Shown: positions 32,802 to 39,138, counted from the first letter of the stretch. The stretch is DNA of 64,000 nucleotides from Alphaproteobacteria bacterium (GCA_965248835.1 CBDFLJ010000002.1:1568001-1632000); one strand, 5' to 3'. Notes: a model not told the origin generated them from the letters alone. Numbers and translations: made by a program.

Positions 32802-34208
32802 ATGCCGCACACGCTGAGGTCTTTCCTCGAATCGATCGACAACCGAATGCTGCATATCCACGATCCCATCAGCCCGGAAAGCCAGGTCGGCTATCTGTGC
32901 TCGGAGAGCCGGGGACCGCTGATGTTCCACAACCTGACCGGCTATCCCGGCTGGCGGCTGACCGACATCCTGATCAAGGACCGCGCCGGCCAGGCTGCAG
33001 CCTTCGGCCTCGACGACACCAACGAGGTCTGCCCCTACCTCGCCGGGCGAATGGCAAGCCGGCGCGGAAACTCGGTGATGGTGGACGACGGCCCGGTCAA
33101 GGATATCAAGATGCTGGGGGCGGACGTCAACCTCCACAAGCTGCCCATCCCGCAGCATTCCGTGGGCGACGGCGGGCGCTACCTGGGATCGGGCATCACT
33201 ATCACGAAAGACCCCGAAACCGGCATCCGCAACGAATCCATCATCCGGATGATGCTCACCGAAGACCCCCAGAAGGCGACCTTCTGGATGGCCGCACGAC
33301 ACAACTACGCCCATTATCTCAAATACATCGCCAAGGACGAGCCGATGCCGATGGCCTTCGCCATCGGGCTCCACCCGGTCTACGAGATCATGGCCAACTG
33401 GTCGGGCCGGCACGAGGACTTCGACGAGCTCGAATACGGCGCCGGCATCCTCGGCGAGGACATCGAGATGGTCCGCTGCGAGACCATCGATCTCGAGGTC
33501 CCGGCCCATGCCGAGCTGGTGATCGAGGGCATGGTCCACCCCCATGACCGCATCCCGGAAGGCCCGTTCGGCGAGTTCACCACCTTCGGCTCGGGCGCCG
33601 AGGGGCCGGCGCCGGTCTTCCAGATCACCGGGGTGACACACCGCAAGGACCCGATCTTCCGCCACATGCAGGCCACCTGGTTCACCGATCACCAGCCGCT
33701 GATCACCCTGCCGATGGAGGCGACCTACTACAACCGGCTGCGCGACACCCACGGCAACACCAACATCAAGGACGTCTTCGTGCCGCCCTGGGCGTCCCAG
33801 TTCATGATGATCATCCAGATGGAGGCGAAGTGGGACGGCCAGGCGCGCGATGTCCTGATGTCGGCGCTCACCGGACCCAACCTCCACGTCAAGGTCGCGG
33901 TCGCGGTCGATGAGGACGTCGACATCTACAACGCCGAGGACGTGCTGTGGGCGATCGCGTGCCGCACCAACCCGGCCGACCAGGTCCACATCATGCCGGG
34001 CTCCCGGCTGCACCCGCTCGACATCTCGATCCCCGAGATCGGCGACGACTACACCGTGATGCGGATCGGCGGGAAGATGGCCATCGACGCCACCAAGCCG
34101 CCGACCTGGCGGGCGGACGAACGCCGCAAGTTCGCCCGCGTCGACCCGATGGGCAAGAACGACCCGGCAATCGCCGACATCCTCCAACAGGTCCGCGCGG
34201 CGCGTTAG
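32802..34208 (+). CDS. UbiD family (de)carboxylase #2
   Basis: [57 protein letters not shown]. Confidence 0.92.
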
Positions 34209-34242
34209 AACCGGTTGCGGCACGGCGTCGGAGCGACAGCGG

Positions 34243-35457
34243 ATGACCAGCGTCTTCGCCATGCCGCGCAACGAGATCGCATCGATCGGACTGATCGCCT
34301 CGGGGCACGGCTTCAGCCATTTCTACATGCTGGCTCTGCCGCCCCTGTTTCCGCTGATGCGCACCGATCTGGACGTCAACTGGACGGCGCTGGGCCTGAT
34401 CCTGACCGTCTACGCGGTCGCCACTGGTGTCGCCCAGCTTCCTGCCGGGATCCTGGTCGACCGGATCGGCGCCCGCCCGGTGCTGCTTGCCGGGCTCACG
34501 GTACAGGCCGCCGCCTTCACCCTGGTGGCGCTGTTTCCGGGCTATTGGGCGCTGCTGGTGCTGATGTTCGTCGCCGGATTGGGCAATGCGGTCTTCCATC
34601 CGGCCGATTACGCGATCCTTGCGGCCCGGGTCGAGTCGGACCGCCAAGGCCGCGCTTTCGGCATCCACATCTTCTCCGGCTATGCCGGTTGGGTCGTGGC
34701 GCCACCGGCGATGCTGTTCCTGACCTCGTTCTGGGACTGGCCGACGGCGTGCTCGATCGCCGGCGTGATCGGCCTGCTGTTCGTGGCCGTGGCCGCCCTG
34801 TTCCGCGATGCGCTGAGCGATACGGCGGTGCGGGGCATGGGCGGGGCCGAAGAGCGCGGGCCGAAGCCGTCGGCCGCAAGGACCACGCTTTCGGTGATCA
34901 CCGCGCCTGCAGTGCTGCTGTTCTTCCTGTTCTTTCTGGCGCTGGCGACCGGTACCGTGGGCATCATGAGCTTCGCGGTGGTTGCCCTGGTCGAGCTCTA
35001 CGGCGCCTCGCTGCAGATGGCCAATGCCCAGCTCACCGGCTATTTCACGGCAGCGGCAGTGGGCGTCCTGATCGGCGGGGTGATAGCCGACAAGGTGAAG
35101 GACCACGAAAAGCTCGCCGCGCTTTGCTTCGTCGCCTCGGCCCTGTTCCTCGGCGTGATCGCGCTCAAGATCATGCCGATCGCCTATGTCGCGATCCCGA
35201 TGGCGGCAAGCGCCTTCACGGTCGCGCTGGTCAGCCCCTCGCGCGACCTGATGGTGCGTAATATCTGCCCGCCGGGAACGATCGGCACGGTCTTCGGCTT
35301 CGTTACCACCGGGTTCTCGGTCGGGACGGCGGTCGGCCCGCCGGTCTTCGGCCTGTTCGCCGACATCGGCATGCCCGAGATGGTCTTCTGGCTATCGGGC
35401 CTGATCACCATGTTCTGTATCGTCTCGATCTACGCCGCCAAGGCGGCAGCGCGCTAG
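34243..35457 (+). CDS. MFS transporter (Fsr-like)
   Basis: About 12 TM segments, GILVDRIGAR motif A, GLGNAVFHP. Confidence 0.88.
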   Translation: MTSVFAMPRNEIASIGLIASGHGFSHFYMLALPPLFPLMRTDLDVNWTALGLILTVYAVATGVAQLPAGILVDRIGARPVLLAGLTVQAAAFTLVALFPGYWALLVLMFVAGLGNAVFHPADYAILAARVESDRQGRAFGIHIFSGYAGWVVAPPAMLFLTSFWDWPTACSIAGVIGLLFVAVAALFRDALSDTAVRGMGGAEERGPKPSAARTTLSVITAPAVLLFFLFFLALATGTVGIMSFAVVALVELYGASLQMANAQLTGYFTAAAVGVLIGGVIADKVKDHEKLAALCFVASALFLGVIALKIMPIAYVAIPMAASAFTVALVSPSRDLMVRNICPPGTIGTVFGFVTTGFSVGTAVGPPVFGLFADIGMPEMVFWLSGLITMFCIVSIYAAKAAAR

Positions 35458-37458: not shown

Positions 37459-37614
37459 GCGACAAAAGACACGCCCGGGGACGCTCTTTCCGGCGGTCGG
37501 GCATCGGGTGCCGGAGACCCTCGCCCGCCCGCGCCGGCGCGGGTTTCGAGATTGTGGAAGGCCGGGCCGCGGCCTATAAAAACTTCGATATCGCAACAAA
37601 TCGGGAGTACCGCG

Positions 37615-39138
37615 ATGGCCAAGACCCTGCGCGAGGAAGTGGACGCCGTGGAAGCGGCAGCCAGGCCCGGCAGCAACATCCGCGCCGTCCTGCCCTATGG
37701 CGATTTGCGCGAATGGCTGGCCGAGGCCGAGCGGCTGGGCGAGGTCACCGTCGTCAAGGGTCTGGAAAAGGAAGAAGAGATCGGCATGGCGGCCGAACTC
37801 GTGATGCATTCCGATGACGCCGACTGCATCGTCTTCGACGACATCAAGGGCCACGAGCCGGGCTATCGCGTGCTGGTCAACTTCTTCGGCGGCAAGCGCA
37901 AGAACATGACGCTCGGCTTCCCCACCGACCTCAGCAAGGTCGAGCTGTCGGAGGCCTATTACACCGCCCAGCTCAAGGACATGAAGCCGATCCCCCATCG
38001 CGTCGTCGAGCAGGGACCGGTCACCGAAAACGTCCTGGAAGGCGATGACATCGACGTGACGAAGTTCCCGGCGCCGCTCTGGCACCCCGATGACGGCGGG
38101 CACTATATCGGCACCGGCTCCTACGACGTCACCGTCGATCCCGACACCGGCTGGATGAATCTGGGCACCTACCGGGTGATGGTCCAGGACGCCAGGACGG
38201 TCGGCTATTACATCTCTCCCGGCAAGCACGGCCGGGTCCACCGCGACAAATACATCGCGCGCGGCGAGAAGATGCCGACGGTGATCGTGGTCGGCGGCGA
38301 TCCCATGACGTTCCTGACCGCCTGCACCGAGATGCCGCCGGGCGTGTGCGAATACGACATCGTCGGTGCCATGCGCGGCGAGCCGCTGAAGGTCATCAGG
38401 GGCCGCCACACCGGCATCCCCTTCCCGGCCGATGCCGAGATCGTGCTCGAAGGCTTCGTCGATCCCGAGGAGCGCCGCCCCGAAGGCCCGTTCGGCGAAT
38501 GGACCGGCTATTACGGCTCGGACATGCGCGACGAGCCGGTGATGCATCTCAGCGCGATCTATCACCGTGACAACCCGATCCTGCTCGGCTGCCCGCCCCA
38601 GCGGCCGCCGGACGAGATGTGCCGCTACCGCGCGGTCACCCGCTCGGCGATGCTGCGCGATGCGATCGAGAAGGCGGGTGTGCCCGATGTCGTCTCGGCC
38701 TGGGCGCACGAGGTCGGCAACTCGCGCATGCTGCTGGCGGTCTCGATCAAGCAGCGCTATCCGGGCCATGCCAAACAGGCCGGCCATTGCGCGGCGATGT
38801 GCCACGTCGGCGCTTACGCCGGAAAGTACGTGATCGTCACCGACGAAGACATCGACATTTCCAACCTCGAGGAGCTGACCTGGGCGATGATCACCCGGTC
38901 CGATCCGGCGACCTCGATCGACATCATCAAGGACGCCTGGTCGACCCCGCTCGACCCGCGCATCCCGCCTTGGGAGAAATCGGCGGGCAACATGACCAAT
39001 AGCCGCGCCATCATCGATGCCTGCCGTCCGTTCCACTGGAAGGACGACTTCCCGATGGTCAACGCTCCCTCCCAGGAGGTCGCGCGCAAGGCCAGGGAGA
39101 AGTTCGGCTACCTGTTGGACGGCAAGGACGCACCGTAA
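37615..39138 (+). CDS. UbiD family (de)carboxylase #3
   Basis: DLREWL, DGGHYIGT, NLGTYR, AEIVLEG, EGPFGEWTGYY, DEDID, AIIDAC. Confidence 0.92.
   Translation: MAKTLREEVDAVEAAARPGSNIRAVLPYGDLREWLAEAERLGEVTVVKGLEKEEEIGMAAELVMHSDDADCIVFDDIKGHEPGYRVLVNFFGGKRKNMTLGFPTDLSKVELSEAYYTAQLKDMKPIPHRVVEQGPVTENVLEGDDIDVTKFPAPLWHPDDGGHYIGTGSYDVTVDPDTGWMNLGTYRVMVQDARTVGYYISPGKHGRVHRDKYIARGEKMPTVIVVGGDPMTFLTACTEMPPGVCEYDIVGAMRGEPLKVIRGRHTGIPFPADAEIVLEGFVDPEERRPEGPFGEWTGYYGSDMRDEPVMHLSAIYHRDNPILLGCPPQRPPDEMCRYRAVTRSAMLRDAIEKAGVPDVVSAWAHEVGNSRMLLAVSIKQRYPGHAKQAGHCAAMCHVGAYAGKYVIVTDEDIDISNLEELTWAMITRSDPATSIDIIKDAWSTPLDPRIPPWEKSAGNMTNSRAIIDACRPFHWKDDFPMVNAPSQEVARKAREKFGYLLDGKDAP

Follow-up and report, generated by a model that had tools for sequence, protein, structure and literature searches.

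We analysed a 64,000-nucleotide stretch of DNA from an Alphaproteobacteria bacterium (GCA_965248835.1, CBDFLJ010000002.1:1568001-1632000; this whole stretch is referred to as the window). In it, nadC, the gene for quinolinate phosphoribosyltransferase (QPRTase), stands between two genes for decarboxylases of the prenylated flavin mononucleotide (prFMN)-dependent UbiD family, UbiD2 and UbiD3. The best single account that we can offer of this block, tentatively and with less than even confidence, is that its five genes form the edge of an island for pyridine-carboxylate breakdown and belong to a pyridine-carboxylate funnel. We favor this account because the neighborhood is conserved, because genes for nicotinate and glutarate metabolism lie nearby, and because nadC has catabolic partners in relatives. 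The layout kept in relatives suggests that the two decarboxylases may act on pyridine acids.

A gene block that joins nadC to two UbiD-family decarboxylases

Genes in the window, whose G+C content runs from 62 to 70% along its length, were picked by third-position GC and length and named by family scans, with start codons set by inspection. Five genes of the block are real and co-directional. Their coordinates and order had been proposed in an earlier reading of the DNA alone (the sequence-only reading) and were confirmed by domain and family scans:

32802-34208, plus strand: UbiD2, 468 aa; PF01977 193 bits, PF20696 84.5 bits, TIGR00148 266.7 against a cut-off of 244.85
34243-35457, plus strand: MFS transporter; PF07690 166.7 bits, no specific NCBIfam family matched
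35468-36421, plus strand: zinc-type medium-chain (MDR-type) dehydrogenase, here called alcohol dehydrogenase (ADH); ADH_N 70.7 bits
36577-37458, plus strand: nadC, QPRTase, 293 aa; PF01729 186 bits, PF02749 70.6 bits
37615-39138, plus strand: UbiD3, 507 aa; PF01977 232 bits, PF20696, TIGR00148 285.1 against a cut-off of 244.85

The nadC product also passes the NadC equivalog TIGR00078 (300.7 against a cut-off of 198.4), and both decarboxylases carry the UbiD core and C-terminal domains. The intergenic gaps along the block are 34, 10, 155, and 156 nt, so the first three genes are tightly packed. Among 30 nadC loci an ADH match was found only in L001, which makes ADH at this position unique to this genome. 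Rfam gave no match over the entire window, and thus no riboswitch is recognized before nadC. Of 200,000 points drawn at random from the genome, 0.28% have a UbiD gene no farther than 3.7 kb away in each direction, and 5.1% have one in at least one direction.

The linkage of nadC with UbiD genes is conserved

Orthologues were called in an order-level survey of 41 genomes (families f1-f5) at identities of at least 72% for UbiD2 and at least 78% for UbiD3. Of these genomes, 31 have nadC, 32 have UbiD2, and 25 have the two together; the distance between them is between 37 nt and 2.7 kb in 19 of the 25. UbiD3 was found in 17 genomes, in 16 of which nadC is no more than 4.2 kb away; the remaining orthologue is on a 6-kb contig. 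Conservation of the nadC adjacency, which the sequence-only reading had put forward as a check on itself, therefore extends over three families of the order.

Scanning named public genome records with UbiD2 returned 54 loci, whose record titles are those of Alphaproteobacteria, Rhodospirillaceae, and Defluviicoccus metagenome-assembled genomes. Of the 34 loci whose match to UbiD2 is at least 79% identical, 25 have nadC downstream; when loci with less than 4 kb of flank are set aside, the count is 22 of 28. In the same group a glutaryl-CoA dehydrogenase gene stands divergently upstream of UbiD2 in 28 of the 32 loci for which 1.5 kb or more of upstream flank is available. The 20 loci with less than 79% identity include a single one with nadC. 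The linkage persists despite inserted genes, a strand flip of UbiD3, a GC content that ranges from 47% to 69%, and nadC identities down to 61%. UbiD2, nadC, and UbiD3 are directly adjacent in L002, and the order is UbiD2-MFS-nadC in genus g6. In L051 and L058, UbiD2 is followed by an opposite-strand Amidohydro_2 gene and then nadC, with UbiD3-like genes on the other strand.

nadC is the only recognizable entry into NAD synthesis

A single match over the cut-off makes nadC the only QPRTase gene of the genome. The enzymes that the aspartate de novo route (nadB-nadA-nadC) needs besides it are not found there: NadA gave no match in the whole genome, and the best genome matches to the nadB model TIGR00551 reach at most 325 bits, short of the cut-off of 452.75, in frames of a length like that of SdhA. 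The absence of nadA and nadB from the window, remarked on in the sequence-only reading, holds among the roughly 50 window open reading frames (ORFs) scanned with Pfam, and the search that it recommended for nadA and pncB elsewhere found neither in the genome, nor in most relatives. Neither nicotinate phosphoribosyltransferase (NAPRTase, PncB) nor nicotinamide phosphoribosyltransferase (NAMPT) was found in the genome.

The search for the kynurenine route to quinolinate comprised tryptophan 2,3-dioxygenase, kynureninase, and 3-hydroxyanthranilate dioxygenase (3-HAO), with kynurenine monooxygenase (KMO) and formamidase left out; of the enzymes searched, only 3-HAO is present. Tryptophan dioxygenase gave no genome match. 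Kynureninase gave none by family search, and tblastn with a relative's enzyme returned E values above 1. There are three 3-HAO matches, the best of which passes TIGR03037 (G000:C2:1775563-1776081, C1:1483648-1484262, and C1:1324165-1324485); the first two, which were the ones inspected, stand alone without kynurenine-pathway neighbors. Given that NadA, NAPRTase, kynureninase, and tryptophan dioxygenase are missing, nadC is the only recognizable NAD entry of the genome. Further along the pathway, the genome has nadE, and it has a nadD-like gene whose score of 104.8 bits falls short of the 112.45-bit cut-off. The nadE match (G000:C1:397903-398680) comes in two pieces that abut in different frames, for which either a frameshift or the six-frame search itself may be responsible.

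Across the order, 5 of 41 genomes have a NadA match at E 0.001 or better; 4 of these matches pass the cut-off, and all 4 are in genus g10 of family f5. NAPRTase was found in 3 of 41, leaving 38 in which it was not found. 3-HAO occurs in 40 of 41 genomes and kynureninase in 24 of 41, a spread which indicates that the order normally makes quinolinate from tryptophan. Kynureninase was not found in this genus (0 of 3 genomes), genus g4, family f3, or family f5. Because the kynureninase step has been lost, nadC is truly "lone" in this genus. The bacterial tryptophan-to-quinolinate route reportedly ends in 3-HAO and NadC; both are present here, and most relatives also have kynureninase, whereas neither kynureninase nor tryptophan dioxygenase is found in this genome or its genus. 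In family f3 (G021, G025, G028, G031, G034, G037, G039), QPRTase and NAPRTase were found in none of the seven genomes, and NadA gave one weak match only (G025), below the cut-off and with a stop codon. All seven keep 3-HAO and a homologue of 6-hydroxynicotinate reductase (Hnr).

One way to read these absences is that a UbiD enzyme runs in reverse, carboxylating nicotinate at C2 to quinolinate with NadC pulling the reaction, so that nicotinate would be salvaged without PncB. The lack of NAPRTase here and in 38 of 41 relatives fits this proposal, as does the additional lack of kynureninase in the genus. UbiD enzymes are reversible, and carboxylation by HmfF at high CO2 is described in the available part of one report (PMC6644310). 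According to the same part, however, known UbiD carboxylations require very high bicarbonate. Family f3, moreover, has UbiD2 but no nadC, and most relatives, having kynureninase, would not need such a route. We consider the reverse reaction very improbable. In the boldest form of this idea, UbiD2 or UbiD3 would act on the pyridine ring by C2 carboxylation of nicotinate, pulled by NadC, and the resulting UbiD-NadC bypass of PncB would branch off the organism's own nicotinate breakdown and make all NAD of the genus. We would also call this a long shot.

Partners of nadC in relatives suggest a catabolic use

Of the 26 UbiD2 loci with nadC, 24 carry, within about 10-125 nt after it, a gene for PhnN, the ribose-1,5-bisphosphokinase that forms phosphoribosyl pyrophosphate (PRPP) (TIGR02322 169.5 against a cut-off of 156). 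An archaeal-type "thymidine"/AMP-phosphorylase-like gene comes next in 21 of these 24 (TIGR02645 507.7 against a cut-off of 434.6); the three exceptions (L034, L042, L053) are loci whose available flank ends within about 1.2 kb beyond nadC. PhnN and the phosphorylase-like protein are encoded by separate genes in L036, are fused in L051, and share one 602-aa ORF with both matches in L058. In L100, nadC is followed instead by a LOG-family nucleotide phosphoribohydrolase (E 4.5e-34), a TctC/Bug binding protein, and UbiD3. This binding protein matches Bug27 (E 4e-43), which the accessible portion of PMC11452294 describes as a high-affinity quinolinate binder. The stretches concerned are:

L036:10708-13622: nadC, PhnN, phosphorylase-like
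L051:11563-14265: nadC, PhnN fused with phosphorylase-like
L058:10798-13522: nadC, one ORF with both matches
L100:8334-10852: nadC, LOG

Because two unrelated nucleotide-splitting enzymes occupy the same slot, we suggest that NadC is used catabolically in relatives, converting quinolinate to nicotinate mononucleotide (NaMN), from which free nicotinate would be released. PhnN and the phosphorylase-like enzyme would regenerate PRPP in these organisms. The sequence-only reading had tentatively assigned the interconversion of a pyridine dicarboxylate such as quinolinate and nicotinate or picolinate to a UbiD enzyme. Given that the fixed neighbors of nadC in relatives are PhnN with the phosphorylase-like gene, or LOG, the likely converter of quinolinate to nicotinate is NadC with a nucleotide-splitting enzyme, and not UbiD.

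The window contains neither the PhnN/phosphorylase pair nor LOG. The AMP-phosphorylase-like gene has no tblastn match in the genome, the kinase part of the fused L051 query has one match at 29%, and the only LOG gene of the genome is 560 kb away. The pair has been lost from this genome and its nearest kin.

The block can be compared with the orphan nadC genes of quinolinate salvage in Bordetella and group A streptococci (PMC11452294, in the portion available). As there, nadC occurs without nadA or nadB, and a Bug27-like binding protein is part of the nadC operon in one relative, L100. Salvage of nicotinate or nicotinamide is reported for Bordetella in that portion, whereas NAPRTase was not found in this genome. 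A further difference concerns the transporter. An MFS gene lies upstream of nadC in this genome and in genus g6, but in L032, a region syntenic with the site of a second UbiD2 copy (described below), a UbiD2-MFS pair occurs with no nadC nearby. Because it stays with UbiD2 where the two separate, the MFS protein appears to be the partner of UbiD2 and not of NadC. This weakens the proposal that it serves as NadC's quinolinate importer.

QPRTase genes are also known from phthalate operons (ophE of Burkholderia cepacia DBO1, phtD of Sphingobium), where, in the available part of PMC6051330, the gene enhances growth on phthalate, is not required for its metabolism, and is accompanied by a MarR regulator. 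By analogy, the UbiD enzymes and MFS transporter could act on an aromatic acid, ortho-dicarboxylic or similar, in competition with which quinolinate would stand, with nadC keeping NAD synthesis up. The window likewise has a nadC-type gene and a MarR gene in an aromatic-acid cluster, quinolinate is treated as a phthalate analogue in the accessible text of PMC13040137, and the binding protein after nadC-LOG in L100 resembles terephthalate-binding proteins as well as Bug27. In the phthalate operons, however, the QPRTase gene is a second copy beside a Rieske dioxygenase pathway, while the nadC of the window is the sole copy, not an extra, and stands beside prFMN decarboxylases. There is no phthalate dioxygenase in the block, and both UbiD proteins are distant from phthaloyl-CoA decarboxylase (80 and 63 bits). 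Such a helper role for nadC is unlikely.

UbiD2 and UbiD3 are assigned to the HmfF and PhdA branches

The nearest solved structure to UbiD2 is PtHmfF (6h6x; E 9e-57, 196 bits, full length), and the nearest to UbiD3 is PhdA (7pda; E 5e-105, 355.8 bits over 468 residues). On this basis, UbiD2 is classed as an HmfF-branch and UbiD3 as a PhdA-branch prFMN decarboxylase. The catalytic EGPFGE loop and the conserved Arg of both proteins align with HmfF and PhdA. A reading of the two as UbiD-type phthaloyl-CoA decarboxylases was rejected, since the scores of 80 and 63 bits for UbiD2 and UbiD3 compare with 196 to HmfF and 356 to PhdA.

In UbiD2, E258 is invariant in 54 of 54 clade sequences, and so are H297, M305, and Q333. 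The His that aligns with H296/H297 of HmfF is thus retained (H297); in HmfF it is key to furan specificity according to the HudA paper (PMC7976604). A His that faces the ring heteroatom near the leaving carboxylate would fit a substrate of the pyridine-2-carboxylate type. The substrate triad of HmfF is reportedly His-Arg-Arg, which we take to be H296, R304, and R331 in PtHmfF. Only the His of this triad is kept in UbiD2. Because Met305 and Gln333 hold what are presumably the two Arg positions, the triad signature indicates that UbiD2 is not a furan-2,5-dicarboxylate (FDCA) decarboxylase.

It is accordingly highly unlikely that UbiD2 is an ordinary HmfF. PtHmfF is its nearest solved structure over the full length, and a gene for a GMC oxidoreductase stands beside its orthologue in family f3, both of which would suit that assignment; the replacement of the two substrate-binding arginines by Met and Gln throughout the clade argues against it. 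Compared with HmfF of Pelotomaculum thermopropionicum (PDB 6H6V/6H6X), the likeness lies in the EGPFGE loop and the aligned His; the block in the window is without an HmfG/UbiX gene and without furoyl-CoA genes. Two PF02441 matches are present in the genome as UbiX candidates, none of them in the window. One, a 218-aa frame at C2:1889389, is a clear UbiX-like gene, the only one as against 38 UbiD-domain matches in the genome, and the other (a 406-aa frame) is probably CoaBC.

UbiD3 keeps the catalytic loop as EGPFGEW, and its conserved Arg aligns with that of PhdA, the phenazine-1-carboxylate decarboxylase (PDB 7PDA) for which the role of Glu269 is stated in PMC10850782. PhdA provides a precedent for prFMN chemistry on an electron-poor N-heteroaromatic acid. 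The differences are that UbiD3 is one of many paralogues, from a large family with 2-8 members per relative at 55-75% identity, and that no phenazine genes were seen.

Nicotinate and glutarate genes adjoin the block

The sequence-only reading had placed the block next to a nicotinate locus, and the genes upstream of UbiD2 bear this out as far as their names, which are annotations, allow:

19992-21554, minus strand: Hnr homologue, 520 aa; without a Pfam, NCBIfam, or PDB match
21463-24429, minus strand: Mo-hydroxylase of the xanthine-dehydrogenase family with a fused 2Fe-2S part; MoCoBD_1, MoCoBD_2, Fer2_2
24222-25175, minus strand: FAD-binding subunit of the Mo-hydroxylase; FAD_binding_5, CO_deh_flav_C
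25349-27238 (alpha) and 27240-28271 (beta), plus strand: 2-oxoacid:acceptor (ferredoxin) oxidoreductase; TIGR03710 642.7 against a cut-off of 482.75, TPP_enzyme_C
28342-29658, plus strand: FAD/NAD(P) oxidoreductase, Pyr_redox_2, GltD-like; weak family matches
29638-30159, minus strand: MarR-family regulator, by family scan
30229-31452, minus strand: family III CoA-transferase; PF02515 440 bits
31456-32751, minus strand: glutaryl-CoA dehydrogenase; PDB glutaryl-CoA dehydrogenases, E 2e-177

The Hnr homologue shares 72-90% identity with proteins called 6-hydroxynicotinate reductase by NCBI and JGI, a name which is an annotation of the source databases. Its three nearest Atlas clusters carry the same name with a high score, which serves as a lead only. 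As in known clusters, the gene stands next to a Mo-hydroxylase, a candidate nicotinate hydroxylase for which every NCBIfam match falls below its cut-off and the source names are generic. The true start of the Mo-hydroxylase probably lies later than the ORF start, since homologues have about 920 aa. The Pyr_redox_2 flavoprotein is a possible ferredoxin-linked reductase, and the best match of the CoA-transferase is to succinate-glutarate CoA-transferase NF052585 (511 bits, below the cut-off of 750).

Clusters of the E. barkeri type, with 6-hydroxynicotinate reductase, occur in aerobic Alphaproteobacteria, Azorhizobium among them, and nicotinate breakdown in Azorhizobium runs via THON and ends through glutarate (PMC3511419, in the part available). 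The upstream genes would fit a nicotinate pathway of this type. What the window shares with the system of Azorhizobium caulinodans and Bradyrhizobiaceae is the placement of an Hnr homologue next to a Mo-hydroxylase and the FAD subunit of that enzyme, together with glutarate CoA-transferase and glutaryl-CoA dehydrogenase. In contrast, no enamidase is recognized in the window, whose Mo-hydroxylase is only generically named, and nadC and UbiD genes, present in this island, are not mentioned in the available part of that account (PMC3511419).

Hnr homologues occur in 35 of 41 genomes. Hnr, UbiD2, and UbiD3-like genes share one distribution, being present in families f1-f4 and in 0 of 5 genomes of f5; because this reflects a single phylogenetic split, it is no independent evidence. 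The distance between Hnr and UbiD2 is 11 kb in this genome and 11-28 kb in G020, G022, G032, G035, and G040.

A proposed funnel for pyridine carboxylates

In the mechanism that we favor, imported heteroaromatic, and most simply pyridine, dicarboxylates would enter the funnel. UbiD2, with its MFS partner, and UbiD3 would each strip one carboxyl group to leave a mono-acid, for example nicotinate, for the adjoining pathway. Low-potential electrons for the nicotinate pathway could come from the 2-oxoacid:ferredoxin oxidoreductase, and glutarate CoA-transferase and glutaryl-CoA dehydrogenase would serve the last steps. NadC would take quinolinate, the one isomer that it handles, to NaMN for NAD. 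In most relatives, PhnN and the AMP-phosphorylase-like enzyme, or LOG, could split NaMN back to free nicotinate.

The proposal that a UbiD interconverts a quinolinate-type diacid and nicotinate therefore survives in part. The conserved adjacency, the missing nadA and pncB, and the Hnr and glutarate genes next door sustain the association with pyridine metabolism. The specific reaction is called into question by the occurrence of UbiD2 in the QPRTase-free family f3, the retention of only the His of the HmfF triad, and the PhnN and LOG partners of nadC.

Evidence against the funnel and its main rival

Several observations weigh against a pyridine-carboxylate funnel. The first concern linkage. 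Among the 25 genomes that hold both genes, nadC and UbiD2 are far apart on one contig in four (G002, G005, G006, G035) and on different contigs in two, and in genus g6 Hnr is at least 54 kb from UbiD2/nadC. Given the gaps of about 155 nt on either side of nadC, the block may or may not be co-transcribed. A promoter and terminator scan of 32-40 kb returned one promoter-like and four terminator-like sites, none above the shuffle expectation.

The second group of observations concerns UbiD2 outside the block. All seven family f3 genomes, which have no QPRTase, have UbiD2 orthologues, and the neighbors of these orthologues encode a GMC oxidoreductase, a TauD-type dioxygenase, and a Mo-hydroxylase. 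None of these three neighbors has an orthologue in the window, their best genome matches being elsewhere at 52-62% identity. This genome also carries a second UbiD2 copy, 95% identical and 92 kb away (G000:C2:1508285-1509688, locus L087), among genes for an amidase, a Rieske/VanA-type oxygenase, RidA, and an FAD monooxygenase. The UbiD2 clade was seen in 3 of 401 sampled genomes of the class and in none of the other 398; since the clade was not seen beyond this order, the linkage may have been inherited as a single arrangement.

Gene content adds further cautions. The 38 UbiD-domain matches in 4.89 Mb speak against a dedicated role in NAD supply. The UbiD, Amidohydro_2, Mo-hydroxylase, and TauD families are all expanded in the genome, and neighbors from such families are therefore cheap. 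The GMC family is likewise much expanded. Enamidase was not recognized in the domain scans of the window, a direct comparison with the E. barkeri enzyme not having been made; the roughly 50 ORFs scanned include two Amidohydro_2 proteins and no Amidohydro_1 or Amidohydro_3 protein. Finally, the sequence-only reading knew of no characterized prFMN enzyme acting on pyridine carboxylates, and our literature search agreed, finding no assay or paper that links any UbiD/prFMN enzyme to a pyridine acid.

Many of these points are shared by the main rival explanation, which is that there is no functional link. On that explanation nadC would be a housekeeping QPRTase fed by quinolinate formed from the product of 3-HAO and would lie inside a decarboxylase-rich island by descent, with the UbiD enzymes acting on unrelated aromatic acids. 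The near-universal 3-HAO of the order, which in this genome passes TIGR03037, and the kynureninase of 24 genomes make the tryptophan route normal for the order. The abundance of UbiD genes, the occurrence of UbiD2 without nadC in family f3 and at a second site in this genome, the restriction of its clade to one order, and the gaps around nadC all point the same way. Yet the linkage outlasts rearrangement and deep divergence, and flanking by UbiD on both sides is expected by chance at only 0.28% of positions. In addition, the missing kynureninase leaves the supply of 3-hydroxyanthranilate in the genus unexplained, and the partners of nadC in relatives are catabolic-looking nucleotide-splitting genes. 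We judge the absence of a functional link to be a serious possibility, with odds well short of even.

Other genes in the window

Two genes follow the block:

39150-39620, minus strand: cytidine/deoxycytidylate-deaminase-fold protein, kept beside UbiD3 in close relatives
39693-40751, plus strand: luciferase-like monooxygenase (LLM), kept after the deaminase in L097

In L097 (G002:C1:3806000-3824000), from a relative of the same genus, the order is nadC-UbiD3-deaminase-LLM, and a different Mo-hydroxylase with its FAD subunit (31-32% identical to those of the window) replaces UbiD2-MFS-ADH.

Elsewhere in the window, a third UbiD gene, UbiD1 (437-1930), is followed by genes for a short-chain dehydrogenase/reductase (SDR), a PNPOx-like protein, a 2-oxoglutarate-Fe(II) (2OG-Fe(II)) oxygenase, another SDR, and an enoyl-CoA hydratase (437-7858 in all). 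A LigAB-type extradiol dioxygenase is encoded at 11725-12825, beside a TRAP transporter. A second catabolic cluster (55631-63829) holds genes for a Rieske/VanA-type oxygenase, two Mo-hydroxylase large subunits, and a DUF1989 protein, as well as a TauD-type dioxygenase and an isochorismatase-family hydrolase.

Significance

Pyridine carboxylates form as dead-end by-products of ring cleavage and tryptophan breakdown, and quinolinate is the universal precursor of NAD. If UbiD2 or UbiD3 does trim pyridine dicarboxylates, UbiD-family chemistry would extend to the pyridine ring. This would explain why a biosynthetic nadC is retained in a catabolic island across a whole order of Alphaproteobacteria. 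It would also give a handle on the NAD supply of a genus without a recognizable entry of quinolinate or nicotinate beyond the lone 3-HAO and nadC.

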